From Schmidtea nova (taxonomy: Eukaryota): 64,000 nucleotides of DNA. The notes under the pieces are model-generated. The model had not been told where the DNA came from, ran no database searches, and was given only the letters and a program-made list of their open reading frames with translations. The stretch is from assembly GCA_044892505.1 (NCBI GenBank), contig CM097882.1, positions 513,918,001 to 513,982,000 on the forward strand, given 5' to 3'. The translations under genes and the position numbers were made by a program. This document shows positions 1 through 64,000 of this stretch, one piece after another (position 1 is the first letter of the stretch; every line of letters begins with the position of its first letter).

Positions 1-47
1 CTCCCGGAAATATTCATCTTGTTTAACACCTTTCCAGATTGGTGGCA

Positions 48-514: not shown

Positions 515-529
515 GTTTTTCTCGCTGTA

Positions 530-1308: not shown

Positions 1309-1347
1309 GATTGGTTAAAAATTTTTGAATTTAGTATATAAACAATA
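1309..1347 (+). promoter_or_regulatory. Putative Pol II promoter (reverse CCAAT box plus TATA box) of the spliced pPolB gene
   Basis: GATTGG at 1309-1314 and TATATAAACAATA at 1335-1347; the same 13-mer occurs at 56721 upstream of the paralog. Confidence 0.55.
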
Positions 1348-1444
1348 GTTTTTCATTTAAGAATCACTTTTTACTGCAACCTAAATTTGGTAAGTTATTT
1401 TTTTTGTTTTAAAGTTTTTAAATAATCAACTTATTTTAGATAAA

Positions 1445-4400
1445 ATGAACAATACCAACAATAATATGGATATTACCAAGAACAACGATGTCGACAACAA
1501 TATGAACAACGTTATTGGTGACAATGTTGAAGCATCTGAAACAATGGATAGTTTAATAAAAAATAAACTTAACGATGAAAAGAGAAAAGAAAGTAACTGT
1601 AAGTATCGATTTATTTAATGATTGCAATTTATAATTAATTACCTTTGTATATAAATATTAATTTAAATTATTTAATAATTAATTTTCTTTATCAATTTTG
1701 TAATTTAACGGATAATCTTTATTTATTATTCAAAGAGATTTGTAATATTTATCATTGATAAGTTAATAAATACTAATGAGAACTTAAAATAATTAACTGT
1801 ATTATTTAAATTATTAATTAGTTTTTAATTATTTTTGTAGTGTTTACTAATTTTTGAAAATTATTTACAATTTTTGAATTTGAATTTTTATTTTATAACT
1901 AATTATTAAAACAATTCTAGTATTAATTATAATAATTAATTAATTAATTTGAATATTGATTAATATTACTTATTGTTTTATTTTTTAATAATTTTTTAGT
2001 AATTAAAGTTTTTGTAAATTAATTATTAATAAATAATTTATTTTCTATCATAGTAAATAATGTGTTCTATATGAAAATTATTATATTAAATTAATATTTT
2101 TAAATTACTTGTAAATAATTTAAATTTTACATCTTTGAGTAAAACTTATTATTAAAACAATTATAATTAAGAATATAATAATTGAAATTAATTAATATTA
2201 TTTTTCATAATTTTTAAATTATTTAATTAAATTTTTATTATTGTAATTATTAATTAATTTATATTAATTATTGTATAATGACATTAATTTTAATATTAAA
2301 ATACTTGTCATTTATTGTTCATATTTTTAATTATTTTTAATATTTAAGGTAAACTTTTTCCGAATTTTCGCCGATCATCAATTCATGACAATAAATGTAT
2401 TGAATTAATGGGAAAATATTACCGATATTCTTATAAAGGAGCTACGTTTTTTATATGTCACGTATGTAAGACCACCCAAAATTCGACTTTTTTGAACTTT
2501 TATGATGACCATAAGGATCATTTAAGGAAATTTAGATCTTCGAAAAAATCCATTTTTAATTTAACAATAAATAATAGTAATAGTGCTAACAATATTATTA
2601 ATAATAAAAGAAAAATCCTTATCGATAATCCACTACCTACAAAAGTTAGAAAATTAAGTAATATAGTTGACGAGGTAATATCCGATATGAAAATTCTTTC
2701 CGACTCTGACACAAGTTCTAATAATGACATTAACACCATAGATGTTCAATATGGTGGGTCCCTTCTTCCTAACGTTAAATTTGATTTGAGAAAATCTCAC
2801 GCCATTGTGAAAATGGATGTTTCTCACTTGGTTTTGAAAACATTAATTTTACCTGATATTTTAATTAATAAATTAAATAATGTTATTAATGAGATGGGTT
2901 CAGTGAAAATACAATTTTGTATTGACGTAGAGTTTGAAAAAGATGGTGAATTCCAATCCTTCATCATTTCAAATTCTGCGAGACCTATGAGTGATACCTT
3001 TTTTGACTAGGATATCACTCTTTTAAATGAAAAAATAGCATTAATTAACGATAAAGGGAGTAATTGGGTTATTAACAAAGTTAATGAAATCCATTTTGTA
3101 TTAACTAAATTTGCCCAAATTAGTCGATTGAGTGGCAGAGGTCATATAAATACCCCTCAATCTTTAGTTGCGAAATATTGTACAGTAAATGTAATTAATT
3201 CCGATGATTTATGTTTCATTTATAGTATTTTAGCTATTTTGAAATATGATGAGGTAACTGATCGTTTTCATAGATATAGAATTAGTAATTATAATATTAA
3301 TGATCTTGACGTTGACCCTTCTGAAATGCCCATGAAACTTTGCAATATTCCAAAATTTGAAGCTAAAAACCCTGGACTTGCTATTAATGTTCTATCTTAT
3401 GATGAAGATGCTCTTCTTGATACATTGGCAAATCCTGAAGTTTTTAAACACCCTTGTGTTGACATTATCCAAAGGTCGAAAGTTGTTGGCGGTACTCCTA
3501 TTAACTTGATTTTATTGGAAAGTGGTGATGCATATCATTATATTGCAGTCACTGATCTTGATAGGCTTTTGAATCTTGATGATCGTACAATTTCCAATAC
3601 TCGCATTCAAAGTATATGGTGTCATCGATGCTTGAATGGATTTCGAAAACAGGAAGCATTCGATTGTCATCAACAGTTGTGTGCTAAAAATCAATTAGGC
3701 ACAACTCTTTATACTCTGCCTAGAAATAAAAATTTACAATTTAGTAATTGGGGTAAAACGATTACCCCACCTTTTGTTGTTTACGTTGATTTTGAGGCTA
3801 TCTTACCTACTGATGATAAGTACTTTCAAAGACATGTCCCAATATCGACCGGTCTTTTACTTGTAAATAATTTCACTGGAGAAAAGATTTACAAGAGTTT
3901 CTTAGGTCTTGATTGCGTTACTAATTTTCTTACTGAAATTAGTAATATTTCTGAAACTATTGTTTATCCCTTTTATAGAACTAATTACAAGAAACCTCTT
4001 TTTATGACATCGGCTAATCAAGAATCTTTTTATTCTGCTACTATTTGTTATCTTTGTAAGAAAACTTTAGTACAACCAGTCAGAGACCATGATCACTACA
4101 CTGGTGAATATTTGGGAGCTGCTTGTAATTCTTGTAATCAATCCCGTCGTTTATACAAGTTTTTACCCGTTATTTTTCATAATTTAAAGGGATATGACTT
4201 GCACCATATTCTTAAATATGGTTTGGCTAATTTTTCAACTTGGAAAATTTCTTGCATTCCTACAACTAGCGAAAAATTCTTGACATTGTCTGCAAGGGTT
4301 GGTGATTTACCAATTAAATTCATCGATTCTTGTCAATTTGTAAATTCTAGTTTAAATGACGCTGCTAAGACTCTTACTTGTTTGCCTTTGACTAGATCTG

Positions 4401-4693
4401 AATTCACCGGGACTATTGTTGACTGTAAGGGTATTTTTCCTTATGATTTTGCAACATCTTAAGAAATTCTTAACAACACTTATGAGTTGCCACCAATCTG
4501 GAAAGGTGTTAAACAAGATGAATATGACAAGGCATTGGTGATTTGGAGGGAATCTCAGTGTCAAACTCTTTGTGACTATATGATGGTCTACCTTAAACTG
4601 GATGTTTTTCTTCTTGCTGATTTCTTTCAACAGTTTAGGGCTAAATCTATAGCTCACAATAGACTTGAGCCTTTGAATTTCTTGGGGATTCCA
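1445..4693 (+). pseudogene. polB: Polinton-type pPolB, N-terminal half, spliced; truncated before the polymerase palm
   Basis: Exon 1445-1598, intron 1599-2348 (GTAAGT...TTTAAG), then one frame from 2349 to 4693 with point stops at 3008 and 4460. Motifs FVVYVDFEA (ExoI), CYLC...DHDHYTGEYLGAACNSCN (EndoVII-like), FHNLKGYD (ExoII), YLKLDVFLL (ExoIII). Homology ends at GIP. Confidence 0.9.
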
Positions 4694-8949: not shown

Positions 8950-10399
8950 AAAAAAACTCAAAGCTCACCAAAGTCGATATTCCACTTTTGACAGGGAACT
9001 GCTGGCAGTACACGATATAATAAAACACTTTCAATACCTTTTAGAAGGGAAAGAATTTGAGGTGTATACTGACCACAAACCTCTAGTAAACGCAATCAAA
9101 ATGAAATTACCGTCACCAAGACAAATAAGACAGTTAAACTACATTTCACAGTTCAATTGCAAAATAAAATATATAGCAGGAGCAGCAAACATATGCGCAG
9201 ATACCCTACCGCGAATAGAAACAGAAACAAACGCGATCAGCATGATCCCAATAGTGAATCAAGAAACAATGAGAAACAAGCAAAAAAGAGCAATAAAAAA
9301 CTTTCCAAAACTCAACTCATTAATCCTAAAAGAGATTGATGGAATTTGGTACGATGTCTCAAACGAAAACAACATAAGACTAATAGTACCTGATGAACAC
9401 AGAATCGAACTAATCAAACAATATCACAACATTTACCACCCGAGAACGAAAGCCACATACGAACTCATGCACACAAAAGTGGTATGGCCGAACATGAGGA
9501 AGGACATCAAATAATTCGTAAACTCATGTAAAAACTGCCAGAAAAACAAAATAACAACAAAATTCAAAACCACAAAAATTGAATTCCCAAAAACAGAACC
9601 TTTCTAAACCATACATATAGACATAGTTGGTCCATTACCACCTAACAACAAACACAAATACCTATTGACGATAATAGACCGATACACTAACTGGTTTGAG
9701 GCTATCCCGATCAAAGAGATCTCAACAGCAACAATTTGCAGGAAACTAGAAATAAACTGGTTTGCGAGATACGGATGCCCAAAAACAATTATTAGCGATC
9801 AAGGCAGACAATTTGAATCTGATATGTTCAAAGGACTGTGCAACAAATACAAAATAAAGAAAGTCAGAACAACAGCATATAACCCACAGTTACGAAATAA
9901 TCCATCTTCGGTAAATAATAAAAGCCCTACCCAACTAACTTTTGGACATTCTACAAACCTCCCAAATTTAATAAAAAATGTCGAAAACACGGACAAAACA
10001 TTCGAAGTCAAAACACAAACAAAGCATAACGTAACAAAAGAAGCTTTCGTAAATAAAAATGACAAACACAAACTTGCAAAAACAAACCTCATCGTAGAGT
10101 CGGTTTTAATAAAAAAACCGTTCACCAGTGGTTTCGAGTCAAAATATGAAGGTCCCTACAAATTATTCAATCTGAACAAAAATGTGGGCACCCTACTAAT
10201 AAACAACAGGGAAATCAGAATCAACATTCGCAGATTAAAACCCTATCAGTATAACAATCAAACAACACAAAACCAAATGAACAAAAAACCCCAACAACTT
10301 CTTAACAGAAACACAACAATTACACCAATTAAAAAAAAAGATAAAGCGACTGCCTCAAATAAAAATACCAACACACACAAAAACACAGGCACAACATAG
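8950..10399 (+). pseudogene. Gypsy pol fragment: RNase H end and integrase
   Basis: YSTFDRELLA...YTDHKPL (RNase H); YHNIYHP...VWPNM (integrase Zn region); HIDIVGPLP, IIDRYTNWFEAIP, SDQGRQFES, TTAYNPQ; several stops. Confidence 0.9.
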
Positions 10400-10879
10400 C
10401 TATTTGTACAGATTTTTTATTTTTTTTTTGTAAATATGTAACTTTTGTGTTAAATTGTAACTAAAAAAAACTAAACAAAAAATAACAAAAACAAAACAAA
10501 AGAAAAGAGGTTTCAAGTTACCGTTATCGTTAAAAATGTAGATTTGATGTGATTGTGTGACTGTTTTTCTCTTTCGTTCAAATGTAACCTCCGGTTTTAA
10601 AGGGGGAAGTTTGTGGTGAACCCAACATTTGGGTATGGTGATTTGTTTCATGAGGCGTTTTATTTTTATTTTTATTGTTATTATCACGGAGTTGGACCCC
10701 CCCATCCCTACATATTAAGGGCAATGTAACATTTATTATTTTCATTATTTTTATTATAATTTTTAAATTTTAAAATAATTAAGCTTACTATAGTAATAAA
10801 CTATAGTAAGCTTACAAAAATATATGAAATTGATTGAAATTTAAAAATTAATTTCCAGAAAATAATTCGGTTATAAATA

Positions 10880-11625
10880 TTATTATTAACCTTTTATACA
10901 TTTATTGTCCTTCCAAATATATCGAAATAATCAAATTTCAGATTCCGATATTATTATTAACCTTTTATTCATTTATTGTCCTTCCAAATATATCGAAAGA
11001 ATCAAATTTCAGAATCCGATATTATTATTATTAACCTTTTATTCATTTATTGTCCTTCCAAATATAGCGAAAGAATCAAATTTCAAAATCCGATAATCGT
11101 TCACTAAAGTCCAATAAAAGAAATATGTCGAAAGAACCAAATTTCAGATTCCGATATTATTATTATTAACCTTTTATTCATTTATTGTCCTTCCAAATAT
11201 ATCGAAAGAATCAAATTTCAGAATCCGATATTATTTTTATTAACCTTTTATTCATTTATTGTCCTTCCAAATATAGCGAAAGAATCAAATTTCAAAATCC
11301 GATAATCGTTCACTAAAGTCCAATAAAAGAAATATATCGAAAGAACCAAATTTCAGATTCCGATATTATTATTATTAACCTTTTATTCATTTATTGTCCT
11401 TCCAAATATATCGAAAGAATCAAATTTCAGAATCCGATATTATTATTATTAACCTTTTATTCATTTATTGTCCTTCCAAATATAGCAAAAGAATCAAATT
11501 TCAGAATCCGATATTATTATTAACCTTTTATTCATTTATTGTCTTTCCAAATATATCGCAAGAATCAAATTTCAGAATCTGATAATCGTTCACTAAAGTG
11601 CAATAAAAGAAATATATCGAAAATT
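10880..11625 (+). repeat. ~70-bp tandem array with higher-order variant units, inside the 3' LTR
   Basis: Repeated attaaccttttattcatttattgtccttccaaatatatcgaaagaatcaaatttcag; variant unit gataatcgttcactaaag recurs at about 11091, 11300 and 11580. Confidence 0.9.
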
Positions 11626-12107
11626 AACACCTCAACAACAGCTACAACAACAACAACAATAGTCGTTCACTACTATCGTAATAAACAATCAACTATCAGA
11701 ATCTGATAATAAAACAAAACTGCAGTCTATTGGCCGATCTGTGATCAGAACTTTTATAAAGTAATTGTATTGTGATTGTTGTTATAGCGTTTAGACAAGT
11801 TAAATAATAAAATTTTTATAATAACATATCATTTCGTTTGTACTGTTCTTTTAGCATCACATAGCATACACCACGAGTGTCTGCACACGAATACCGCAAG
11901 ACTCTCTCGGGCGCTTACATTTCTCTTTGTACATACTTACACACACCATATAAACATTAAAAGACTCATATATTAACAATATATAGGTATATCTAATTAT
12001 AATAAAACGTTCAACATAACAAACTAAATAACAGACTCTAAAGACTTTTAAAACAACGTAAATATCAACTTTAACACGACCCATACCTTACCTTTTATAA
12101 AAATCAT

Positions 12108-28246: not shown

Positions 28247-28575
28247 GAATATCCAATGAAATTGAAAGATATTAAAAAATTTGAACACCAAAATCCGAAA
28301 ACCGCAATAAATGTATTATTATATAATGGCAGTAAATTCCAAAATTTAGGAGGATGAATATGTTATTTTGAAACATCCACAATTAGATATAATATATCGC
28401 GCCAAAATAACAGGAGTTACACCGATATATTTACTAATGATCGAACATGGGGAGAAATTCCACTATATAGCGGTTGTCAATCTGCAAAGATTGATGAACA
28501 CAGGAAGAGCAACTATCAATTGTCCAGTTCGGATTCAATGCAAGTGGTGCGAAACATGTCCTAATGGATTTAAAA
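28247..28575 (+). pseudogene. polB: pPolB N-terminal fragment
   Basis: YPMKLKDIKKFEHQNPKTAINVL and KHPQLDIIYRAK...FHYIAVVNLQRL...IQCKWCETCPNGF match the other copies. Confidence 0.85.
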
Positions 28576-28599
28576 TTCATTTCAACAGTTATTAGTTAA

Positions 28600-28779: not shown

Positions 28780-30584
28780 ATTCCTGTGACGTCGCTGAAC
28801 CTCTTCTGCAAGCTGAACCTTTTCGCGACAAATCTGAGTTTGGTGTAATCATGGAACCAGTGCCACGTAGTTCTTTGGGAAAACGAAAAAGACCAACAAA
28901 GGATAAAATGGAATTGCAATGACAATTGAAAGATTTTGCAACATCTAGTACGGTTTTTCCAGAAGGAAATAGTTCAGATTTTCAGAGTTGCAGTCCGATT
29001 GAACTATTTAAACAGTTTTTTGACGATAGCATCTTGAAACTGATAATGGACCAGGCCACATTATATGCCTTAGACAAGAATTGGTGGGATCCTAAGATCT
29101 CGATGGAGGAACTCAAAGTCTTCATTGGTATTTTGATAGTATCTGGATACAGCAGTTTGCCAAGTAAAGCTAATTATTGGTCAACAGGAGATGTGACTTG
29201 CGAAATACAGCTGTGTATGAATCAATGCGACGAAATAGATTTGACACTATCATGAAATGCTTACATTTCTTTCCGAATGACAACCTGGATAAGGAGGACA
29301 AATATTCGAAACTGAGGCCACTTATTGCACACTTACAAAACAAATTTATGCAACATTTTGTGCCTACGGAACACATTTCACATGATGAAGCAATGGTTGC
29401 AAACAGGCAATTCTGAGTAAGCCAATCTGATTCGGCTACAAAAGTTGGTGCCAGAACTCTCAAACTGGGTATCTTATTGCCTTTGATCCTTACCAAGGAA
29501 AACGTATAAAGGTGACCTGGAAACCGAAGTAAAATTTGGAAAATGTTCTTCAACTATTTTACAGTTGTTGGAAAAATACAGTGAAGTAAAAAAACTTCCG
29601 TACCACGTGTATTGTGATAATTTATTCACGACCTTACCTTTGCTACAAGAAATGACAAAACGGGGATATAACTGTACTGACACTATGAGAGATAAACGAT
29701 GCCCATTGACGGATGGCAAAATTATCGAAAAGAAAGAGAAACGTGGCTACATGCAGATAGCAACTTCCATTACAGAATGCGGAAAACTTATCGTGACTCG
29801 TTGGAAAGATAATGCTATTGTGAGTGTTGGTTCTACAATATACGGACAAAATCCAGCCGGAATCACCTATAGATGGAGTAGAGCTGACGTCAAAAGAATA
29901 TCAGTTCCGATTCCGTTGGCAGTCGAAAACTACAACAAGTATATGGGAGGTACCGACCGCATCGATCAAAATATTAACGCCTACAGAATCGGAATCAGAG
30001 GCAAGAAATGGTGGTGGCTTCTATTTACATGGTTACTCGATGCAGCGATTCAAATGCATGGCAACTGTCTAGAATGGACGGAAAACAAATCGATCAGCTA
30101 TCTTTTCTCGGGGACATCGCAATGGCGTATTTGAAATCGTACAAAAATGAACCGAAAGCACCAGGAAAGAGATGCAATACACGAGCCGGAGGATTCCACG
30201 CGCGCTACGATAACAAGAGTCACTTTTTTCAAGCTACCACGGATAACAAAAAAAGATGTGCATTCTAGGAATGTAAATCAACTGGTAAAACGGAGTGTAA
30301 CAAGTGTAAGGTCGGATTATGTGTTAAGTGTTTCCTAAAATATCATTCAAAATAAATCAGCTTTGAATATTTTTTTTATTATTTTTATATTATTTTTTGT
30401 TATTTCCTTTTAAAGATGAATAAAGAATTTTGTGTACCTGTATTCTACTAGTGTTGCCATTCCTTATCTAAGAAACCAGTTCACATGTTGCAACCAAAAG
30501 TTGAATTTGCAATAAGGGTTTTTAAGATAAGTTTTTTAAATTTGAACAATTTTGGTTGAATTTTTTATTCTGGGAAATAAAGGG
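28780..30584 (+). mobile_element. piggyBac (PGBD3-like) transposon remnant, left end missing
   Basis: SPIELFKQFF, MRRNRFDTIMKCLHF, HDEAMV, YCDNLFTT, WKDN, YNKYMGGTD, C-terminal Cys-rich CNKCKVGLCVKCFLKYH; right end AAAGGG|TTAA. Confidence 0.9.
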
Positions 30585-34742: not shown

Positions 34743-37486
34743 TAGGGCATCCAAAACCGGGATTCCAAAACCCGGTTTCCGGGAAACCCGGACATTTTCT
34801 GGAACCGAAAACCGAGATTGAATTTGGTAAAATTTCCCGGTTTTCGGTGCTGAGAGCAAGCATTTCTCATATTCTAAAATAAGCAAAATACTGTTCGCAG
34901 CTTAATATTTACATTACGAAATAATATAAGTACATATTTCCGTTAATAATGACTGTGAATTAAAAGATTAGTTCAAAATTAAGCCCTTCGATTACATTTG
35001 CAAATATAATTCACAGTCTCTTTAAGACAACATCAATATAATAATTAAATTTGAATTTAATTTGATTTATTTATAACTATAACAAGTCGTTTGAAAGTAT
35101 TAAATTTACTCTAAAGTTATATTGTGTTTTTTTTTATATGTGAGTTTTTATATAGGTTATATATATTGTATTTTTTATGTAGTGTTATTTTTATTGGTCA
35201 CTCGGAAGGTCGGAAGTAAATCAATCAAAAGTGTCCAGTTTAATCTTTAAAGCAAGTAAAATTTTTATTATTATAGAAAACATAAAATTATAGCAAATTT
35301 TTTACAACCCAATACTAGACATGTCTATAAAAAATATCAAATTTGAGGAATGCAGCCAGCGGCTGATTGAAAAAACTCCAGTATGGGAGTATTTTCTCTG
35401 TGACAACAATTCTGGTGAGTTTGCGAAATGTAAACGATGTGATAAGCCATTGAAGACAACAGGTGGTTCAACAAGTTCCCTCCATAAACATATTACATCT
35501 ATTCACAAGATCATAGTAAACCTGTGAAGAGATATGCTTCTGTAAGTACAGCAGCAACATCAACTACAACCAGAAAAGCGCAGAAATGTACACAGTTCTA
35601 CGCTAACAAACTACCTCATCATTCGTGACAACACTTTTGAAGCGGTATTATCTCGTATGACAGCCGGCGATGGTTTATCATTCAGAATTTTCATTAGTTC
35701 AATTGAGATGCGCAAGTCGCTAATAGCACGTGGATTTGAAGTTCCAAAATCAGCTACAACAATTCGAGACATGGTAATGAAATATGGAAAAATAATTCGG
35801 GAAAAGTATAAGGTTGAATTACAAGGTTTGAAATCCCAAGGAAAGCTATTTAGTCTCACTTTCGACGAGTGGACTTCGTGTAAGAACCGACGCTATTTAA
35901 ACATAAATGCGCACATTAAATGTAAATTTTGGAATTTGGGACTGGTACGAGTGCGAGGATCTTTGCCTGCAGAATGCTGTATCAAACTTATTGAAGAAAG
36001 GCTGCAAATATTTGGCTTGAATTTGAATGAAGACATCATTTGCATTACAACGGACGGTGCCGCTGTAATGCAAAAGTTTGGGAAAATATTGACCTGTAAG
36101 CAGCAACTCTGCTTCGCTCACGCAATTCATTTAGCAGTATTGGATATCCTTTATCAAAAACCTAAACCAGCTCCAGCTGGTAACGATGACGATGACTGTA
36201 TTTCAGATGGTGATGGTAATGGTGACGACGATCAAGACGAAGGATTTAATCTTGAATTGGAAGCGAATGAACCAGAACTGTGTGAGAATTTTTATGATCT
36301 TATCCGCAAAATTAGAACTGTAGTCAAGCTATTTCGTAAATCACCAACTAAAAACGAAATTCTTCAAAAATACATCAAAGAAGAATTTGAAAAGGAATTG
36401 CAATTGATAATTGATGTAAAGACAAGATGGAATAGCCTTTATAGTATGCTTGAAAGATTTCGTAAATTAAAAAACAACATTCGAAAATCTTTAATAGATC
36501 TCAATTCAAGTTTTTCATTCGAAGACGAAGAGTGGAATATGATTAATGATTTAGTAACAACACTTGAACCAATAAAATTAGCTGCAGAAGCTTTATGCCG
36601 CCGAGATGCGACATTATTAACAGCTGACACGACAATTTTGTTTATGATAAACAACCTAGGTTGCAGTGAATTTGCTCTGCAAATGAAGGACTCGCTTTGT
36701 TATCGCATAAATCAACGACGAACGAAAGTGGCTAGTTTGCTGCAATATTTACATAAAAGCAAACAAGATTATGCGGAACTGGATCCAGACTCCGTTTTAA
36801 ACTTTGAACATTTGACAAAGTCAGCGATAGCAAACATGATAATTGGCCTATCAAATCCACTCGAAGGAAGCCAGCAGTCATCTGAGTCGGACTCAGACAA
36901 TGATGTTGAAATTGGAATAGAATTGTCGTTGGAGGAAAAGCTTAACCGTGCCATTACCAAGGATGTAAATTCCACTATTACCCCACCAACAAAAACAATT
37001 AGAGACATAACTAATGTTATTAAAAAAGAATTGGCTATTTTCGAACTGGAGGGCAATCGTGGAAAGAATCTCCAGACCTGTTATGAAAACTTGTTATCCA
37101 TTCCACCTACGAGCGTAGATTCAGAGCGCGTATTTTCCAATTGTGGTATGGTTTGTACAAAAATTAGATCATCACTAAACGATCAAAGTTTAGACATTTT
37201 AAGTTTCTTACGAACACATTTTAAAACGGAAGCGGACATTTAGAGAAGCTAATAACTTTTTATTTATTAAATTGAATTGTGTTTATTTTTATATTGAATT
37301 TCTGTTATTTTATTTTTGTTCCTTTATTATAATAAAAATTATTTATAATAAAAATGCTTTTTTACTTATAATTTATTATTTTTTATTTACATTTTCAGCA
37401 CCGGTTCCAGAACCGGGTACCCGATTCTGGAACATTCTAGCACCGAAAACCCGGTTCCAAAAAAATTCTCGGTTTTGAATGCCCTA
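34743..37486 (+). mobile_element. hAT transposon, transposase frameshifted after the BED finger
   Basis: TIRs TAGGGCAT(C/T)CAAAACCG; BED finger at 35317-35527; ORF 35657-37243 with FDEWTS, TTDGAAVM, CFAHAIHL, KTRWNS, PPTSVDSERVFS; no 8-bp TSD seen. Confidence 0.92.
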
Positions 37487-47919: not shown

Positions 47920-47963
47920 AGTAGGAGGCTATGTCCGGTCTGGATCTGTATGAGCTATCGCGC
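47920..47963 (-). repeat. Terminus of a Polinton-like element, downstream of pPolB
   Basis: AGTAGG-N24-ATGAGCTATCGCGC. Confidence 0.75.
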
Positions 47964-48486
47964 ATTTTTTGATAAGATTTTTTAAGTGTATTTTGTTAAA
48001 ATGTTTGGAATTTTTTATTTTTTTATTATTACATTATTGATTTATTATTATTATTATTTTTAAAATTTAAATTGTATTTATTTATTTTATTTATTAATTA
48101 TTTTTTAAATTAGTTATTTATTTATTTTTTTATATTATTTTTTTGTTAGTATTATTTGTCAGTATTATTTATTATTGTTATTATTATTTTTGAACAACTT
48201 AGATGTTAAACGTTCAATGAAAATACTACTCAAAATAATATAAACATATAACAAAATGAGACGACTATGCTCAACAACAAAAACATAAATATTCAAATAC
48301 GATAAATATTAAACTAAATATTTATTACTTTTTTAATTTATTATTTTTATTATTATTTCTGTGATGTAATCATAGTTTCTAAGAATTAGTACTCATATTA
48401 TAAAATACATACTGAAACTAATTTGTATTATATATATATAACTAAATAAATAAAAAACAATAAAAAACAAAATTTTTCAAAATATT

Positions 48487-51290
48487 TTATTTAAATAAAA
48501 CTGTTTCTTCTTCAGTTGGATCTTGAAATTGTTGATCTGCATTGAATCTTGGATCGCTATGTTGAAATATAACCAAGTCACTCCCTATATAATGACCACA
48601 TGCCAAACTTTTATTTTTTGCTACCCATTTTCTTTTATCATCTGTATTTTTCAGTGCAGTCTTTTCATTTTTAATAGTGAATAGTTGATGATTTTTACTT
48701 GTGATTCTGGTTTGAGGAACAGAAAATATTTGGTTATTATTAAAACAATCTAGGTGTGACTGATGTTTTATGTTAGTGCCCTCTAATGTTACCCCCTTAG
48801 CTTTATTAGTTTCCTCGTTACCTAAAAGACTATAACATTTAGGTCTAAGAAACACCCACTCCTTTCACTTAAGCCTTTTTTTTCGTCTTTGAACTTCCAA
48901 ATGACAGAATCAAGGTTCCTACTATATAATGGGTGATTCGGATCATAATTAGAAGTGTCAAGTAAGTTATCTCTTATCATGGCCGGTAAAACAATATCAA
49001 GCTTACAATTTATAACCTCAAGAAAGAATGAATCGGTGTCACCAGCTACGATGTTGATTTCACATTTGAATTCGTTACGATATTTTTGTAACTCTTCATA
49101 CTGCAGCTGGTACATTTGAAGTTTGGATAAATCCAGTACAGTTTGACCAATGTAGCTGGGTCTATCCAAACACACTGATTCCTTATTCAACAAGACGACA
49201 ACCAAATCATCGTCAATTTCGAAAGTCCTTTTGAAAGTTGACTTAGAAGTATTTGTAATCAGCCTAGAAGGCGAACTACATAATCCTTAATTCATGAGCT
49301 TTTTAGGATTCTCTAAGGTTTTACAATAGAGACTATTATTTAATAATTTATAATAATCTTTACCCAGAGCATTACTTGATTCTGCTTTAAGTCTGGTATT
49401 GGTATCGATTTAATCCTTAAAAATACATGCTTGTTTAAATTTAATTGCCTTATGACATGAGTTATTTTTACTCTAAGAGAAAGAAAAAATTTGAGAAGTC
49501 TCCAATGAAGAACAAAGCACCAACTTATCAACCTTTGAGCCAAATGGACACATCTTTTCAGCGGCAACTGGAAAATCATCCAGCTTGTCGTGAATCGAAT
49601 CAGGAATTTCTAAATCGATTTCTAATTTAAACTCAAATGCTAATACAGGTATCCCTCCTACAACACGATTTCACTGTAACACGATAAAAAATTCCTGAAA
49701 ACCTCTTATAACACGGTACTTCTACAATACGATTTTTATTTTTTTAGAACATTATATTATTGACATAAAATGCAATTCGTGGAATACCCAGATTTTATTA
49801 TATCAAGAATACAAGTCATATTTATTTTTTGTGTAAATATTTTGTCATTTTGTGAAGACCATAGCAAGCCTGCAAACCATATATATATTTTTGTGAAATG
49901 GAAAAAATATATTGTGTAGACTTGTGAAATAGGAAACAAAAATATTTAAATACTTTTTATTTACAAGATATCGATTTTATTAATTTTTTTCAGGTAAGGT
50001 TATAAAGTATGACTATTTTTTGAAAATAATTTTCAGGCCTAAAAAACAATGTCTCGTGAGAATAAAAAACAACTTGGAAGAGAAAGTTTATTTCTTTAGA
50101 AATTAAATACAAATTTTAGGTCGGTTGCTAAAAGGAGAAAAAGCATCACACATTGCAAAAACCTAAATTTAAATGAAGTGACAGTCCGTACAAAAAAGTT
50201 TGTTTTTTATGTATTTAAGTTTGTTTTTATTTGTTTTGTTATTCTTAATAAAAATAAAGTTTTTTCCATGGCATTAAATTTTTTTGAAACGTTTCCCCTC
50301 ATTTTGTATCAGCTTCTAGACTCCTACAGCACGGTGTCACATAACACGTCATATTATAGGAAGGATACCTGTACTTCTAAATCAGCAGATTTACAATATT
50401 AAATTATTTAATTTAATTTTTCCTTCTCAGTTATCTATTAAAATTCTTATTAAGGCAGTTTTTGGCTAAGAGCCCACCCATATAAATTATTTATATCTAT
50501 ATAAAGAAGCTCAATGTCGTCGGAGGATACTACATGGTGTTTATTAACAATTGTTAATCCACCACGGATCCTCCTTCGAAAACATTATACATCACCATAT
50601 CTTGAAGCAATTCGATAGGAGATTTCAAAGTTATCAATGCAGAATTCCACGACAAGCCTGGAATTCCCAAGAAATTAAGAGATTCAAGTCGGTTATGTGC
50701 AATGGACTTTGCCCTAAATTGCTGAAAAAAGTCGGGAAGTTATTAATATGCAGCAAATTAGCAGAAAAAGGCAGGTGACGTTGAAAATACTTATCGTCAT
50801 TGGGTAGAACCGCCTCAAAATCAGCATATACGACGAAAGGAAGGGTAAAGACCTTTGACCAATAGTTGTACCTAACTGGTATTTTGTGCATAAAGCCTGA
50901 TGTTTCTCAAAAGCTTCAGTCAATCTAAAACCATTTAAGCAACGCTCGCACCAATTACATCTTTTCCGGACATTCGTAATAGAAAGTGTCACAATTTAAA
51001 AGTCTATTAAGATTGGTAACTCTTATATAATGAAAAGAGTCACTTTCTTCTAACAAAATCAAATTAATTGGAGTGCCACCTAAAACCTTTGACCTATGAA
51101 TAATATCTACAAATGGATGTTTCATGACTTCCTCCTCCTCCTCATTATTATTATTTAGATCATATTCGTCATATAAAAGGATATTTATAGACAGACCGGG
51201 GTTTTTCGCTTCAAAATTTGGAATATTACATAATTTCATTGGAAGATCAGAAAGATCAAAAACAGGTCTGAAATATTATAATTATAAGAC
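48487..51290 (-). pseudogene. polB: pPolB copy with an internal deletion and a Tigger insertion
   Basis: N-mid part at 50780-51290; palm start at 50440-50770; C-terminus with AGDTDSFFL, KFKDE, LRPKCYS, KAKGV, DDKR. Confidence 0.9.
49646..50371 (+). mobile_element. Tigger/pogo-derived non-autonomous element
   Basis: TA|CAGGTATCCCTCCTA...TAGGAAGGATACCTG|TA; CENP-B-type HTH remnant (KGEKASHIAK...LNEVTVRT); empty site in the paralog at about 55452. Confidence 0.9.
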
Positions 51291-53775: not shown

Positions 53776-53819
53776 AGTAGGTAGATGTGTCCGGTCTAAA
53801 CCACTATGAGTTATCGCGC
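53776..53819 (-). repeat. Terminus of a Polinton-like element
   Basis: AGTAGG-N24-ATGAGTTATCGCGC, abutting the Gypsy integrase. Confidence 0.75.
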
Positions 53820-54286
53820 GTTTTTTGGCGCCATTTTTAAAGTGTGTTTTGTTTAAATGTTTGGATTTTTTTTTATTATCTTTATTTTATTATTAAATTA
53901 TTTCTTTTTTTTATTTAAATAATTTTTTTATTAATTTATTTTAATTAGTTATTTATTTTTTTTAAATATTATTAATTTACTTTTGTTAATATAATTTATT
54001 ATTGTTCTTATTTTTTTCAACACCTTCAATGATAAACGTTCAATGAAAGCACTCATCAAAATATTATAAGCATATAACAAAATGAGACAATTCTGCACAA
54101 CATAAAATTACTTAATCAAATACGATAAATATTAAACTAATTATTTATTATTATTAGTATTATTATTAATATTACTATTATTTCTATGACGTAACCATAG
54201 TTTCTAAAAATTATTACCCAAATTATAAAAACAGACTGAAACTAATCTGTACAATATATAACTAAATAATTAAAAAACAAAGTTCT

Positions 54287-55519
54287 TCAACAAATTTTAT
54301 TTAATAAAACTGTTTCTTCTTCAGTTTGATCTTGGAATTGGTGATCTGGATTGATTCTTGGATTGGTATGTTGAAATATAACCAAGTCACCTCCCATATA
54401 ATGGCCATATGCCAAGCTTTTATTTTTCGCCACCCATTTCCTTTTATCATCTGCGTTTGTCAGTGCAATCTTTTCATTTTTAATAGTAAAAAGTTGGTGA
54501 TTTTTACTTGTGATTCTCGTTTGGGGAACAGAAAATATTTGGTTATTATTAAAACAGTCCAGGTACGACTGATGCTTTATGTCAGTACCCGCTAATGTTG
54601 CCCCCTTAGCTTTATTAGTTTCCTCGTCACCTAAAAGACTATAACATTTAGGTCTAAGAAACACCCACTCCTCGTATTTAAGCCCTTTATTCTCGTCTTT
54701 GAACTTGCCAATGATGGGTGATTCGGATCATAATTAGAAGTGTCAAGTAAGTTATCTCTTATCATGGCCGGTAAAAGAATATCAAGCTTACAATTTCTAA
54801 TCTCAAGAAAAAACGAATCGGTGTCACCAGCAACGATGTTGATTTCGCAGTTGAATTCGTTACGTTATTTTTGTAACTCTTCATACTGCAGCTGGTACAT
54901 CCTAAGTTTAGATAGATCCAGTACAGTTTGACCAATGTAGCTGGGTCTATCCAAACACACCGATTCCTGATTCAGCAAGACGGCAACCAAATCATCGTCA
55001 ATTTCGAAAGTCCTTTTAAAAGTTGGCTTAGAAGTATATGTAATCAGCCTAGAAGCCGAATTACATAATCTTAAATTTTTGCGCTTTTTAAGATTCTCTA
55101 CGGTTTTACCGAAGAGACTATTATTTAATAATTTATAATAATTTTTACCCAGAGCATTACTTGATTCTGCTCTAAGTCTGGTATTGGTATCGATGTAATC
55201 CTTAAAAATACATGCTTGTTTAAATTTAATTGCCCTGTGGACATGAGTTATTTTTACTCCAAGAGAAAGAAAAAGTTTGAGAAGTCTCCAATGAAGAACA
55301 TAGTTCTTCTTGGAATAATGCGTAAGCATCAACTTCTCAACCTTTGAGCCAGGTGGACACATCTTTTCAGCGGCAACTGGCAAATCATCCAGCTTGTCGT
55401 GAATCGAATCAGGAATTTCTAAATCGACTTCTAATGTAAATCCAAATGTTAATACTTCTAAATCAGCACATTCACAGTAATAAATTATTTTATTTAATCT
55501 TTCCCTATCAGTTACCCTA
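54287..55519 (-). pseudogene. polB: pPolB C-terminal half
   Basis: LEVDLEIP, KLLNNSLFGKTVEN (motif B), AGDTDS (motif C), LRPKCYS, KAKG. Confidence 0.92.
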
Positions 55520-55539
55520 CTACCTAAATAAAATAACTT

Positions 55540-56260
55540 TTTTGAGTTTTCATTGTAATATTGTATAGATAAAGTTTAATTGTCTACAAAATGGCTTTAT
55601 TAGAATTCTGACGGTTGTCGTGTTTTGCGATGCACACGTGTTTTATTTTGAATTTTCAAATTTTTAACAATATAAAGTAAATTTATGTATTTTTCATTGT
55701 AATAAAGTATAAGTAAAATTTAATTTCCTATAAAATGGCTTGATTCAAAATCTAAACGTTGTCGTTTTTCGTGTTACACACGTGTTTTGTTATTAATTTT
55801 CGCATTTTAAGCTATCTAAAGTAACTTTAGTGAGTTTTCATTGTAATACTGTAGAGATAAAATTAAATTTTCTACAAAATGACTTTATTAGAAATCTGAA
55901 GGTTGCCGGTTTTCGTGTTGCACTCGTGTTTTATTTTGAATTTTCAAATTTTTAACAATATAAAGTAACTTTATGTATTTTTCATTGTAATAAAGTATAA
56001 ATAAAATTTAATTTCATTTAAAATGGCTTGATTAGGAAATTAGTTTGTTAGTGTGTTTGTAATACACACGTGTTTTGTAAGTAATTTTGCATTTTTCGTC
56101 TATATAAAGTAACTTAAATAAGTTTTCATTGTAAAACTGTAGACATAAAATTTAATTTTCTACAAAATAGCTTTATCAAAAATTAGGTATATCGATATGT
56201 TTGTGATGCACACGTGTTTTGTAATAAAATACTGGATTTTCTCGGCTATTTAGCATAGAT
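55540..56260 (+). repeat. Five-unit 144-bp tandem array with a CACGTG core
   Basis: cac(a/t)cgtg at 55633, 55777, 55921, 56065 and 56209. Confidence 0.9.
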
Positions 56261-56777
56261 TTATTGAATATTTATTGTAATCATGTGTAGATATAATTTA
56301 ATTTTCTATCATATACTAATGAAAATTATAAAAGTTTTGTGTGTTATTGACAATTCTAATGTATTTTATCAAAATTAATTAAAATACTTTTTATAACCGA
56401 CGTAATTATTGAAATGTAATATAATTTAGATGTAATTCACTGAAATATTTAGTCTAATATATTTTAATCATATGACATGCATGCAATTCATTGATATATT
56501 TTATAACTTTGATGTGTATTATAATTTGTTGAAATAACTTTTAGTTTTTTAAAATACTGCAACGTAATATATATTTAGTCATAATTCTCTATCATTTCTC
56601 TTTTTGATGATAATAATACCTTTACTGCCTCTTACTTGATTCTGATTGGATGATAAGAATAAATTTCCTAGCCCTTACTCGATTTTTATTGATCAAAGGT
56701 TATGTGTGTAATAACTTTGATATATAAACAATACTTTTTCATTCATTATTCACTTTAACAAATAATAAACATTAAAA

Positions 56778-59700
56778 ATGAACATTATAACAAGTTTTAT
56801 GAATGAAAACCCAAGTGGAAAAGAAAATGGTAAATTTGTTTTTTAATTTATTATCATTTAGTATTAATTTAGGTAATATCAATAATTCAATTGGGAAATC
56901 GATGTTAGAAAATGCGGAAGAAAATGGTACTTGATCATTAACTTAGTAAATTATTTAATTTTTACTTTAGGTGATGTAAATATGACTGGACAAACTACCG
57001 TACAAGCTGAGATTGTTAATAATGAGAATATTAGGAATAATGGAGTTATACCTGATGTGGTATTGAATGTCCAATGTAAGTATTGATTAATTTTAATTAA
57101 TTTGATTAACTTTTAATTAATTTGATTAACTTTTAATTAATTTAGTAAATAAATATAGTAAAATATTTGTAAATATATAATTTTGGTAATATTTTGTAAT
57201 AATTTAAATAATCTTTACTTTACGTAAACATTTAATTTAAACAAATTCCTTTAATATTATTTTGTAATAAGTTTTATATTAAATTTAAATTATTTTAGTA
57301 ATTATTATATTTAAATCATATTTATCTTAAATTTCATATTTATTTTCTAATAATTCATATTTTTATTAATTTATTTTAATGATTTTTTGATAAATTTAAA
57401 GATATTTCATATTAAGGTAAATTTTATGCGAATTATTGTAAGTCGTCAAGTCATAACGACTGCCACAAGTTAATGGAGCGATAGTATCGTCTTATAAATA
57501 ACCAAGTCACCTTCTATTTGTGTCCCACCTGTAAGAGCGCCCAAAATAACACATACATTGATTTTTATTTCCAACATTATCTCCATTTAAATCAATTCTC
57601 ATGCACTAAGAAAAGTCTTTTCGCATTAATTAATAAATGTAAACGACGAAATGTTACTGTTTGTCCTAAACCGGCTAAAATAAATGTAATATCTGATGAT
57701 GAAGATGTCCATTCATCAAATGACGATGTTTTAGTTATTCCTAATTTACATGTTGTCCAATATGGCGGTTCTGTTGAACCTTTGGTTAAATATAATTTGA
57801 AAAAATCTCATGCCATTGTTAAAATGGATGTGGATTCTTTAAATTTAAATTAATTAATTATTCCTTCACCTTTATTAAATAAATTTAATTCAGTTATTTC
57901 TAAAATGGGGTATGTAAAAGTTCAATTCTGCATTGATGTAGAATTTGAAAAGAATAAGCAATTTCAATCTTTTATAATATCAAATTCTGCAAAACCAATG
58001 AGTGATACCTTCTTAGATGAAGGTATTGCTCTATTAAGTGAAAAAATGACTAAAGTCTGCGAAAATGGCAGCAATTGGTCAATTAATAAAATTAAAGAAA
58101 TAAGCTTTAAACTTACAAAATATTCGCAAATAAGTAGATTGAGCGGTAAAGGTTCTTGTTCAACTCCACCATCATTAAATGCAAAACGTTGCACTGTCAA
58201 TGTTAAAAATACTGATAACTTGTGTTTTATATATAGCATCTTGGCTATTTTAAAATACGATGATGTAGATAGCAATCATCGAAATAGAGCATCTAATTAT
58301 AATCCCTCAAACCTTGTGTTTGATTCTTCTGATTTTCCAATGAAATTATGTAATATACCCAAATTTGAAGCGAAAAACCCGGGGTTGGCAATAAATATCC
58401 TTTCATATGACGAGTATGATCTAAATAATATTAATGAGGATGAGGAAGTCATGAAACATCCATTTGTAGATATTATTCATAGGTCAAAGGTTTTAGGTGG
58501 CACTCCAATTAATTTGATTTTGTTAGAGGAAAATGACTCTTTTCACTATATAGGAGTTACCAATCTTGACAGGCTTTTGAACTGTGACACTCTTTCTGTT
58601 ACTGATGTTAGGATAAGATGTAATTGGTGCGAGCGTTGTTTGAATGGATTTAGATTGACTGAAGCTTTTGAGAAACATCAGGCTTTATGCACAAAAAACC
58701 AGTTAAGTACAACTTTGTACACTTTGCCTTCAGTTAAGAATTTGGAATTTAAAATTGGTCAAAAATTGTTACCCCTCCTTTCGTTGTATATGCCGATTTT
58801 GAGGCTGTTTTACTCAAGGACGATAAGTATTTTCAACGCCACTTGCCTATTTCTGCTGGCTTGTTGCTTATTAATAACTTTACCGGCGAAAAATCGTATA
58901 AAAGCTTTTATGGTCTTAACTGTGTAGAAGAGTTTTTGACTGAAATCAATGATATAGGAGAAAAAGTAGTTTTACCTTACTTTATAAATAATTCCAAAAA
59001 GAAAATGGAATATCTTTCTCCTGCACAAATAAGATCATTTCGTAGTTCTATAATTTGTTATTTGTGTAATAAACCTTTGAAAAATCCAGTTAAAGATCAT
59101 GACCATTATACAAGTAAATACTTGGGTGCAGCTTGCTCTAAATGCAATTTTTCTTGGCAAATAAGATTCGTCATGCCAGTCATATTTCATAATTTACGTG
59201 GATATGATTTGCATCATATCCTCAAGTATGGTTTAAATAAATTCGATAAATGGAATATAAGTTGTATTCCTACTACAAGTGAAAAGTTTTTGACTTTATA
59301 TGCAAGAGTCGATAGTTTAACTATTAAATTTATCGATTCTTGCCAATTCGTAAGCTCCAGCTTAAACGATGCTGTAAAGACTTTAACAGATTTTCCTCTT
59401 ACTTCATCCGAATTTATAGGGACTATAGTTACTTCCAAAGGCATATTCCCATATAATTTTGCAACTTCTTTAGAGGTTTTACAAAATACATACGAGTTGC
59501 CACCGATTTGGGAAGGAGTTAATATCGACGAGTATGAAAAAGCTCAACAGATATGGGATGAATTTAATTGTGAAACATTGTTTGATTATATTATGCTATA
59601 TCTGAAATTGGATGTTTTCTTACTTGCCGACTTTTTTCAGCAATTTAGGGCAAAATCCATTGCACATAACCGACTTGAGCCTCTTAATTTCTTGAGAATT

Positions 59701-59917
59701 CCAGGCATGTCATGGAATTCAGCTTTGATGACTTTGAAATCTCCTATCGAGTTGCTTCAAGATATGGAGATGTATAATTTTTTCGAAGGGGGATCCGTGG
59801 TGGGTTAACATTTGTTAACAAACACCATGTAGTATCCTCCGACGACACTGAGCTTCTTTATATAGATATAAAGCTTTTATATGGTTGAGCCTTAAGCCAA
59901 AATCTACCTTATAAAGA
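56778..59917 (+). pseudogene. polB: pPolB N-terminal half with three short spliced leader exons
   Basis: Exons 56778-56829, 56873-56926, 56971-57075 and 57417 onward, all joined by phase-1 introns; stops at 57482 and 57851; frameshifts near 58750 and 59795; reaches LLYIDI...YG*ALSQNLPYK. Confidence 0.9.
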
Positions 59918-61218: not shown

Positions 61219-64000
61219 TAGTGATTGCAAAAACGGTTACCCGATTAATCGATTAATCGACCAATTTTAGCAAACCAATTAATCGGTTTAACCGTCTTAA
61301 AAATCGATTATTCATATTTTACATTTTTTTCGATAATATTCTTTCCAAAATATTTCTAATCAAGAATTCCATAAAAATTTTCCGCGGAATTGTGCATTTA
61401 CATGAATTTTAATTTTTTTCCTACAATATTTCCAATGAATTTTGTAGAAAAAATTTTCCGTATAATTTTCTATACAAAATTTTTGTGTACAATATTTTTT
61501 TCAAATATATTTTTTTCGGCATTGAGTACAGTAGGCATAATTATTATTGTCAAAAATGTTTATTTGTAGTGTGAATTAGTAAAAGTATTGTTCTTGTGTT
61601 TTTAAATATACGTTCTTGTGTTTTTAAATATAAATATTAAATATTATAAAGTTAACGTTCTTGTGTTTTTAAATATAAATTTAATATTATACAATTTGCA
61701 GCAAATGTAAGTTTTAAGCATAAAAATCAAACATTATATTTGTATCAATATATGAAATTATTATTAGGGTATTAATTTAATTGTTTTATTTTTAGTTTTA
61801 AGATAAAAACTCTTGGTCTTCTTAATAATGGAATCAAATTTCCAACCAACTGAAAAAAACAAAACAAGCTCTGAGTTACACAATATATGGCATTTCTTCG
61901 AGTATAACAAAATCAATCAGTCAGCAAAATGTAAAAAATGCATGAAGGTGTTAAAGTGCTATGGTAGATCAACAAGTTCTTTGCATTCGCATTTAAAAAC
62001 TGCACACAGTATCAATGCCTTAAAAAGAACTACAACGGGTAAAAATTGTTTGGAAGTTGAATCTTCTTTCTGCTCTCAAAGCTCATCATTAACAAATTTT
62101 TTCCGAAATAAAACTGATGACTCTCTAGCAGCAATTATTTCAAGAATGACTGCGAAGGACGGGATTCCACTATCGATGTTTTGTACTTCGTCTGATTTAA
62201 GAAAACTTTTAATTGCAAAAGGGTTTCAGAATGTTCCTAAATCTCCCAACACAATAAGACGATTGATTGTTAGTTACTCAAAAAAAATACGAGATGAAGT
62301 TGTAAATGAAATATCGCACTATAAAGAGAGAGGTGGAAGATTCAGCCTCTCATTCGATGAGTGGACATCAAGTCGAAATAGAAGATACTTAAATATAAAT
62401 GCTCATTCAAATTGCGTAGGACAATTCTGGAATTTAGGTTTGGCCCGTGTTGTAGGAAGTTTACCCGCTGCAAAGTGTGTTGATCTTCTTTTGGAAAAGT
62501 TATGTGTTTTTAACATTTCAATGGAAAAAGATATTGTTTGCATAACCACAGACGGAGCCGCCGTCATGAAAAAGGTTGGAAGACTGATTCCTGTTTCGCA
62601 GCAGCTTTGTTTTGCGCATGCGATACAGTTAGCAGTCTTAGGTGTGTTATACCGTAATAACTCGTTTGATGTTGCTGAAGTGGAGGATTTACCCGAAAAC
62701 GAAGAAGATTCAACTGATGAAGATTCTGATGATAAAAATAGTAACAATCTGAACTACAATTTTGATGTAGTTATTGGCAATAAAGTAATTCCGATTTCTC
62801 ACCACCGACTCATGCCACTGATAGCAAAGGTACGCAAAGTAATCAGAATATTTCGGCTTTCTCCAACAAGAAATGACGATATATTGCAAAAGTACGTGAA
62901 AGCTGAATTTGGAAAAGAAATCATGTTGATTTTGGACTCAAAAACTCGATGGAACAGCCTACTGACTATGTTGGATCTTTTTTTAAAATTGAAATCAGCT
63001 ATTCAGAAAGCTTTGATCGATATTAAATCAAGTTATCTGTTTTCTGTAGATGAATTCAACCAGCTGTCCGAAACTGTTGCTACGCTTACTCCAATTAAAT
63101 TTGCACTCGAAGCTCTCTGCCGTCGAGATGCTAATTTATTGACTGCAGAAGCAACGTTGAAATTCCTGCTAAGCACGCTGGAAAAAATGAACTACAGTCT
63201 TGCAATTGAAATGAAGGATGCATTAGAATTACGAATTAAAGAAAGGCGGACCGATTTATCAGGTTTGTTGCAGTACTTGCACAGTGGTTATGCTAATACT
63301 TCCTCTTCAACCACTGACATATTTCCTGCTTTGAAGAAAAGCATAGTCAAGAAACTCTTATTGGATATGGTGCAACGATTATTTAAATCAGATAACGAAC
63401 CTGACGTACTGGAACAGCAACGCAGCGAGGAAGATATTGGTATGGAAGTATCAATAGTAGAAGAAACCGAAAACGAAGCTGACACAATCAAGCAACAAAT
63501 GCAACGAGCTATTGATAAGCATTTGGCTGTGCCTGAAAAACGAACCACTTTTTCTTACACTTCTTCAATAATCGAAAAAACTTTAAAACGTGAGCTTGCT
63601 CAGTTTGAAGATGGTGGACATCGCGGTAAATGGTTGGATCTCTGTTATAATACATTGAAATCAATTCCTCCTACAAGCGTGGAATCAGAGAGGGCATTTT
63701 CTGTATCAGGAAACTTCTGTACCAAACTCAGATCACCATTAAGTGATAAAACCATAGATGACTTATGCTTTCTACGTGGTCACTTCAATAAAATTTAGAA
63801 AACATGTCTTCACAATTTTTAAAATGAATTTTTTATTTATGTTTTGTTAATGAATTATATTTTTTTTCTTTTTTTTTAAATAAATATGATATATTCTAAA
63901 TTTAAAAACATGGTAAAATAAAAATATTTGCTAGAGGGAAATATTTCGACAAGAAATAATTTCACAAAACAATTCCTTTTAAAAAACCGATTAAAAACCG
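61219..64000 (+). mobile_element. hAT transposon running to the window edge
   Basis: Left end TAGTGATTGCAAAAACGG with ccgattaa subterminal repeats, which recur at the window end. Confidence 0.85.
61828..63798 (+). CDS. Intact hAT transposase with BED finger
   Basis: W...C..C...H....H BED finger; SFDEWTS, TTDGAAVM, CFAHAIQL, KTRWNS, PPTSVESERAFS; no stops. Confidence 0.93.
   Translation: MESNFQPTEKNKTSSELHNIWHFFEYNKINQSAKCKKCMKVLKCYGRSTSSLHSHLKTAHSINALKRTTTGKNCLEVESSFCSQSSSLTNFFRNKTDDSLAAIISRMTAKDGIPLSMFCTSSDLRKLLIAKGFQNVPKSPNTIRRLIVSYSKKIRDEVVNEISHYKERGGRFSLSFDEWTSSRNRRYLNINAHSNCVGQFWNLGLARVVGSLPAAKCVDLLLEKLCVFNISMEKDIVCITTDGAAVMKKVGRLIPVSQQLCFAHAIQLAVLGVLYRNNSFDVAEVEDLPENEEDSTDEDSDDKNSNNLNYNFDVVIGNKVIPISHHRLMPLIAKVRKVIRIFRLSPTRNDDILQKYVKAEFGKEIMLILDSKTRWNSLLTMLDLFLKLKSAIQKALIDIKSSYLFSVDEFNQLSETVATLTPIKFALEALCRRDANLLTAEATLKFLLSTLEKMNYSLAIEMKDALELRIKERRTDLSGLLQYLHSGYANTSSSTTDIFPALKKSIVKKLLLDMVQRLFKSDNEPDVLEQQRSEEDIGMEVSIVEETENEADTIKQQMQRAIDKHLAVPEKRTTFSYTSSIIEKTLKRELAQFEDGGHRGKWLDLCYNTLKSIPPTSVESERAFSVSGNFCTKLRSPLSDKTIDDLCFLRGHFNKI

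Follow-up and report, generated by a model that had tools for sequence, protein, structure and literature searches.

A predicted spliced leader on a Polinton DNA polymerase gene in Schmidtea nova, probably one arm of a decayed polymerase-only palindrome

In the 64,000 nucleotides of Schmidtea nova DNA analysed here (the window), the predicted spliced 5' end of a Polinton pPolB gene was recognised as what is, with good probability, part of one arm of a decayed palindromic element that carried the polymerase only, with an origin by fold-back and integration in trans being likely. The original prediction had described the gene with its spliced leader, which was upheld, and had missed that the gene is an arm of a palindromic, polymerase-only Polinton derivative. 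Two pPolB copies are central to the analysis, at 56.8 kb and 1.4 kb of the window; they belong to separate element families, B and A (70% amino acid identity), and both are decayed.

The features of the right arm of the B copy lie on the forward strand. A putative Pol II promoter (56645..56733), whose function we infer from ATTGG (reverse CCAAT) at 56645-56649 and a TATA-like box at 56721-56733, is preserved across B copies with minor variants. Leader exon 1 is predicted to run from the ATG at 56778 to 56829 (52 nt), followed by intron 1 (56830..56872, 43 nt), leader exon 2 (56873..56926, 54 nt), intron 2 (56927..56970, 44 nt), leader exon 3 (56971..57075, 105 nt, from sequence reading and the copy alignment), intron 3 (57076..57416, 341 nt) and the main pPolB exon (57417..59917). 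All three predicted introns are GT-AG and phase 1, the last one splits a conserved Cys codon (AAT/GTAAGT...TTAAG/GT, with slashes at the junctions), and the spliced frame is open; all the coordinates proposed for them originally held on re-reading. The main exon, which has 1253-1255 codons in complete natural B copies, is decayed here by an in-frame stop at codon 22 (57482-57484), a second stop at 57851-57853 and frameshifts, and is truncated at 59917. On the reverse strand, 53776..55517 holds the left end of the palindromic element, which begins with its AGTAG tip (53776), and a left arm shortened by an internal deletion. This stretch shares 95.9% identity with a natural B element that is complete, and the C-terminal part of pPolB in this arm lies at 54290-55545. 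A 144-nt tandem array (55525..56309, no strand assigned) stands upstream of the promoter, as it does in palindromic B elements, and the central two-tip unit is lost. The window element has kept only its left tip; part of the left arm has been deleted internally, the centre is missing and the right arm is truncated.

The A copy, also on the forward strand, has a predicted promoter with ATTGG and a TATA-like box (1310..1347), a predicted 5'UTR intron of 50 nt (1390..1439), a predicted coding leader exon (1445..1598, from sequence reading and the copy alignment), a predicted phase-1 intron of 750 nt (1599..2348) with the Cys junction as in B, and a main pPolB exon (2349..4693) decayed by stops, truncated at 4693 and located in the third of three 5,982-bp tandem units. 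The coordinates of both introns were correct as first given, and the claim that the last junctions of the two copies build the same T/GT Cys codon was borne out and extends to full Polintons B, D and P1. So was the claim of a shared promoter motif with an upstream ATTGG: TATATAAACAATA (the TATA motif) occurs in the window only at 1335 and 56721, and ATTGG lies at 1310 and 56645. This TATA motif is common to A and palindromic B only, and the promoter sequence of full Polintons B and D differs. In dinucleotide shuffles (n=1000 each) a strong phase-1 donor preceded by at least 30 open codons was obtained in 11 (B) and 12 (A), and by this measure the predicted leader/donor arrangement of both copies is more than chance. 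The three tandem units of the A copy (window 1-4693 plus 12 kb upstream; L124, L049) are 99.95% identical, and the triplication may have come about by duplication not long ago or through the assembly. The window also contains a decayed pPolB of a third family at 12075-15239 (46-72% amino acid identity; tandem array at 10878-11622), a small decayed pPolB fragment at 28247-28577, an older decayed left arm of B-like type at 47920-51284, whose own tip lies at 47920, and ordinary retroelement and DNA-transposon frames: retroelement RNase H/integrase, MULE, piggyBac-type DDE and two hAT transposase frames (8912-10399, 17288-18124, 29487-30134, 35546-37243, 61807-63798).

Searches of the own genome returned at least 131 B matches (94-100% amino acid identity) and at least 150 A matches, and the alignment of copies that the original prediction had proposed as a check was made with the window copy plus 29 B loci and the window copy plus 27 A loci. 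After rows without a homologous leader were dropped (6 of 30 for B, 3 of 28 for A, the window copy staying among the rows), the predicted splice sites were preserved in all or all but one of the remaining rows (23-24 of 24 for B, 24-25 of 25 for A). In B, the ATG and both ends of intron 1 were kept in 24/24 rows and the GT and AG of intron 2 in 23/24; in A, the UTR intron kept GT in 25/25 and AG in 24/25, and the long intron both ends in 25/25. The length of the long intron is free to vary among copies (297-341 nt in B, 750-799 nt in A). Length changes in the leader exons are mostly multiples of three (for example, +12 and +24 in B exon 2, which stay in frame), the exceptions being two single-base changes in B exon 1, which is frameshifted in 2 of 24 rows. 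As pN and pS are similar in the leader exons (0.056 vs 0.060 in B, 0.086 vs 0.107 in A), the predicted leaders evolve neutrally at the protein level and therefore likely supply mainly a start codon. Splice-site conservation within one genome is by itself weak evidence, because the copies are closely related. About 35 of the 150 A matches (by eye) have open frames of 861-867 aa, which suggests a shared lesion or an error-prone site.

Conservation of the predicted introns across lineages is stronger evidence than conservation among copies. Full Polintons D and P1 were located beside ATPase matches, and the last intron was found with the same Cys-codon T/G junction in five leader types (palindromic B and A; full Polintons B, D and P1) whose leader exons are unrelated to one another. 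All 11 coding-leader introns over the five types are phase 1 and their exons are open. The pPolB of D has three phase-1 introns (58, 50 and 1000 nt), and that of P1 has a 49-nt UTR intron candidate and one intron of 1104 nt. Three phase-1 introns with the same T/G junction were also present in 5/5 full Polinton-B genes examined; their leader is Met/Pro-rich and unrelated to that of palindromic B, the main exons are 97.5% identical, and DNA homology between palindromic and full B starts within the last intron. The N-terminus, first described as variable and Asn-rich, is thus variable but not always Asn-rich. In the metagenome relatives L165 and L167 the Cys is contiguous and directly follows their own ATG, and in protein P0006 it is contiguous near the start Met. 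Four other GT-AG candidates of 42-46 nt were seen in L167, one of them at a frame break between homologous segments. At 1590-1610 of L167 the Cys, Lys and Leu codons follow one another without a break and spell TGTAAGT, which is a perfect donor, and it may be speculated that the conserved last intron arose by duplication of a site of this type.

Gaps with GT-AG ends were found in two further genes. The integrase motif TDLG/KEF is interrupted by 41 nt in D and by 44 nt (by eye) in one full B copy and is contiguous in L165; all 150 listed matches of the D integrase are short frames of 213-218 aa with 99-100% identity. In the protease, a gap at codon 2 (39 nt in D, 40 nt in P1) was matched in four of five full B elements, and the same pattern is visible in L165 and L167, which rules out that L165 is wholly intronless. 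In the host, AT-rich GT-AG candidates of 46 and 48 nt lie at match breaks in two of six chaperonin loci scanned. The predicted introns therefore combine GT-AG ends, restoration of the frame, a conserved position and a host-like size, and the core genes here depart from the intronless state published for Polinton/Maverick, with GT-AG gaps in pPolB, integrase and protease. Judged from these comparisons, the predicted introns are very probably real in this Polinton lineage, and since the junctions are shared across lineages and the integrase and protease have gaps as well, splicing is likely obligatory for it. The original proposal had the element use host Pol II and the spliceosome; comparison gives good support to its spliced expression (five leader types, contiguous Cys, integrase gap). 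The C-terminal 140 positions of Cpn60/TCP-1 also gave dozens of dispersed matches, often about 4.6 kb apart, which suggests a chaperonin fragment borne by a repeat.

The upstream segments could also be read as non-coding, with translation beginning inside the large exon, at a Met 19-20 codons from its start, and with GT-AG pairs that are UTR introns or chance products of AT-rich DNA, and this is very unlikely. That Met, 19-20 residues into the main exon, is conserved and two database proteins (P0001, P0002) were called from it by gene callers; the neutrality of the leader exons agrees with such a start. Among 15 joints listed from four runs, none was at the predicted splice sites; these runs have no recorded RNA origin and resemble DNA libraries, and their result speaks neither for nor against splicing. 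However, the Cys/His residues upstream of the Met are conserved and follow the ATG in L165, L167 and P0006, the coding-leader introns of the five leader types share one phase and have open exons without exception, and the shuffles yielded comparable arrangements in only 11-12 per 1000. In runs X2-X4, the kind of which is not on record, summed contig depth peaks over the predicted promoter (56631-56707); this was kept out of the evidence because contig depth is a poor measure.

The product is a protein-primed family B polymerase. Pfam DNA_pol_B_2 matched a window fragment (E 2.7e-9) and P1 (E 1.5e-31) but, at E<=0.01, neither the A nor the D frame of full length, and Endonuclease_7 was found in the window fragments, P1 and the full A and D frames. 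Motifs that we take to be those of the exonuclease and the polymerase are visible in the pPolB alignment. The closest homologues (9/45) are unnamed proteins with 43-61% identity, and named insect proteins reach about 30%; a scan of IMG/VR found no relative. A structure model of A residues 1-600 (pLDDT 74, pTM 0.41) had its best fold matches in adintovirus/bidnavirus PolB (E 1e-25), and a PDB fold search with this model gave no match at E<=0.001. The model contains folded domains at about 140-260 and 265-400 with near-invariant C287 and H393, to which the whole-model fold search assigned no single domain. A TP-like domain followed by a Cys/His vOTU protease is expected in pPolB according to 10.1101/2024.03.18.585575.

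The palindromic layout became evident from the arrangement of the copies. Sixty-two of the 131 B matches form 31 divergent pairs, 4.2-8.6 kb apart, and none form convergent or same-strand pairs. Six pairs that were fetched are palindromes of 13.1-15.4 kb with one pPolB frame of 1253-1255 codons per arm; no other ORF of at least 150 aa was found inside any of the six, and genes for integrase, ATPase, protease and capsid are absent. Arm identity is 99.6-99.9% in five of them and the sixth has an interrupted arm. All six have AGTAG...CTACT ends and perfect 6-bp target site duplications (TSDs). For A, 7/7 pairs are palindromic with arms 97.9-99.9% identical, and the 6-bp TSD is perfect in five, has one mismatch in one and was not found in one. 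The terminal inverted repeats (TIRs) and 5-8 bp TSDs of autonomous Polinton/Maverick elements are thus present in 6/6 B, 5/7 A and 3/5 full B elements. B palindromes have no retroviral-type integrase of their own, which is found in the full relatives, and lack the ATPase, protease and major and minor capsid genes of autonomous elements.

The centre of the palindromes consists of two complete inward-facing Polinton tips around a spacer of about 300-400 nt, the tips matching the ends of full Polinton-B (in B) or of P1 (in A). This two-tip centre lies at the arm junction in 4/5 B and 4/7 A centres displayed; in the remaining ones (1/5 and 3/7) the arm match ends elsewhere, probably through deletions. 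An ordinary integrase insertion as the source of the central unit was ruled out, since its flanks are inverted rather than direct. A palindrome of 3.6 kb with only a C-terminal fragment of pPolB has a perfect TSD. Two convergent integrase pairs turned out to be palindromes of the left half, each some 17 kb long and carrying ATPase, integrase and capsid genes but lacking a polymerase; a perfect TSD was found for one of them. Left-half palindromes of Polinton D (L160-L161 and L162-L163) hold TBP-like, ATPase, integrase and capsid genes twice and differ in their fold-back points, and a further convergent capsid-gene pair is listed at C1:474.11 Mb. Another palindrome, at G000:C1:278012728-278043037 (L101, L043-L045), has D-type tips, a perfect 6-bp TSD and a RING-finger gene instead of pPolB, and a B element is inserted in one of its arms.

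Full-length relatives were found among the unpaired matches. For B, 12 of 14 have protease and capsid genes upstream, mostly together with integrase and ATPase, two being partly rearranged, which rules out that the B palindromes are without any full-length parent; three of five that were extended are elements of 14.7-15.1 kb with TSDs. For A, a protease gene was found upstream of 0/26 unpaired matches in a search that was not exhaustive, and P1, the closest of the full elements, shares only 48% identity with A over the N-terminal half. Matches of the D integrase and the P1 capsid are 99-100% identical at at least 150 and at least 102 places, respectively. The pN/pS is 0.17 in B palindromes (pS 0.074 between loci, 0.0016 arm vs arm) and 0.17 in A palindromes (pS 0.16), ratios biased downward because the compared ORFs were chosen as unbroken. 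The polymerases of palindromic and full B share 94-97% identity and interleave in all three partial trees (one per third), and a single clade of palindromic B polymerases was rejected with support in 0/200 bootstrap trees for any third. This interleaving points to recombination between the two kinds, by which the purifying signal in B may have come in. Full Polintons of the lineage (L086 1554-2075, L106) and the metagenome contig L165 also carry a TATA-binding-protein-like gene (Pfam TBP E 7.5e-17). An A-type leader with repeats adjoins D-type integrase/ATPase or capsid genes in L175, L182, L185 and L187, being either nested insertions or recombinants. A second Polinton type, with a DJR-like capsid, a PLA2-like domain fused to the integrase and a different polymerase, is nested in or beside the first (L085-L100).

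In the explanation proposed here, host Pol II and the spliceosome would join the short leader exons, and these would contribute the start codon together with the first base of a Cys that belongs to an N-terminal Cys/His cluster. The last intron may serve as a crossover zone in which promoter-leader modules are swapped onto the main exon. The palindromes would descend from a short linear molecule with an inverted internal tip near one end (in order: tip, spacer, internal tip, repeats, promoter, pPolB, tip), and strand displacement would have copied it. The end tip of the displaced single strand could then pair with the internal tip, and the paired 3' end would copy the remainder, giving a hairpin and from it a palindrome with two equivalent outer ends. 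Such molecules would be copied from the outer ends, with the arms equalised at or near insertion, and the integrase would come in trans from young full Polintons. This mechanism predicts the observed centre, its inverted flanks, equal arms and TSDs.

Long reads are known to produce long inverted repeats as an artefact. The palindromes could on this account be chimeric assembly products, or chromosomal fold-back or gene conversion between the arms could have formed them once the element had inserted, mechanisms that arm identity alone cannot tell apart. Such an origin is most improbable, as a direct 6-bp duplication at the outer ends with differing unique flanks occurs in 6/6 B and 5/7 A palindromes, the arms are slightly different (97.9-99.9%), and the same central unit recurs at many loci; gene conversion could raise arm identity but would not make the palindrome layout. 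Whether the palindromes' own polymerase acts is a separate matter, and for A this is likely. It is possible, though doubtful, that the palindromes are defective passengers with an unused pPolB, supplied with polymerase and integrase by full Polintons and with their selection inherited or refreshed by recombination. The close and interleaved B polymerases fit this, as do the many pairs with broken frames of equal length in both arms and the TSD-flanked 3.6-kb palindrome, which indicates mobility without an intact polymerase of its own. It is opposed by the divergence of the A palindromes under apparent constraint (pS 0.16, pN/pS 0.17), by the lack of an upstream protease at the 26 unpaired A matches and the distance of P1, and by the preserved promoter and splice sites. 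Under the fold-back explanation, a tentative extension is that the lineage has split into complementary palindromic satellites, polymerase-only ones that are self-replicating and under selection and integrase/capsid-only ones, as a segmented helper-dependent Polinton system. In such a system, the polymerase-only palindromes may conceivably replicate as hairpin-derived linear DNA, with the central two-tip unit as the record of a single-strand fold-back.

The elements resemble Polinton/Maverick (Eupolintoviridae with HNH-containing pPolB2, PMC10748475) in their 6-bp TSDs, TIRs and a pPolB with an Endonuclease VII/HNH-type insert, and also in that genes for ATPase, integrase, capsid-like protein and protease are present in their full relatives. 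They differ in that published TIRs measure 100-1,500 bp (PMC10748475), whereas the palindrome arms are 6-7 kb and hold the whole polymerase with no integrase or capsid. According to PMC8097293 and 10.1101/2022.07.12.499685, the core genes of vertebrate and nematode Mavericks have no introns, in agreement with the statement of the original prediction that Polinton polB is usually annotated so. Adenovirus E2B Pol and pTP have spliced mRNAs (PMC11304566), and the likeness extends to a protein-primed polymerase whose short upstream exons, predicted in the present case, are joined to a large terminal coding exon. Adenovirus does not integrate and uses one leader for Pol and pTP, whereas the Polintons here have family-specific, swapped leaders and host-sized introns of 39-50 nt in the integrase and protease too. 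Dinoflagellate eupolintoviral proviruses contain introners (PMC12166617), which are likewise intron-type sequences within Polinton-like elements; those are recent insertions of intron-generating transposons, whereas the positions here are fixed across divergent lineages and the interiors are unalignable. Group I introns in PLVs are also known, and remnants with pPolB and TIR that lack integrase have been noted in C. elegans. The present palindromes further resemble palindromic sub-genomes that arise by 3'-end self-priming on an inverted repeat, as in adenovirus panhandle replication and the Polinton 'racket' model. A comparable case is given by the snapback or self-complementary genomes of AAV (PMC10924063). 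Unlike the AAV and adenovirus forms, the products here are integrated with TSDs, amplified as families and have an intact polymerase. In a full-text search of the literature outside Repbase and supplements, no report was found that describes spliceosomal introns as conserved in the core genes of Polintons, or palindromes with pPolB alone (including PMC6431247, PMC12220804, PMC8502044 and 10.1101/2024.01.15.575659).

When Polinton core genes are treated as intronless single ORFs, as they are in annotation, spliced lineages would be mis-called as broken, even at the catalytic motif of the integrase, and screens demanding pPolB and integrase together would miss polymerase-only palindromes. Fixed introns would bind the lineage both to Pol II transcription in the nucleus and to hosts that splice introns of about 40 nt. 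The palindromes are a very young, high-copy family, and as a sequence record they agree with the single-strand fold-back intermediate that has been proposed for Polinton replication. With dozens at least of near-perfect inverted repeats of 13-15 kb, they may affect the stability of the host genome.
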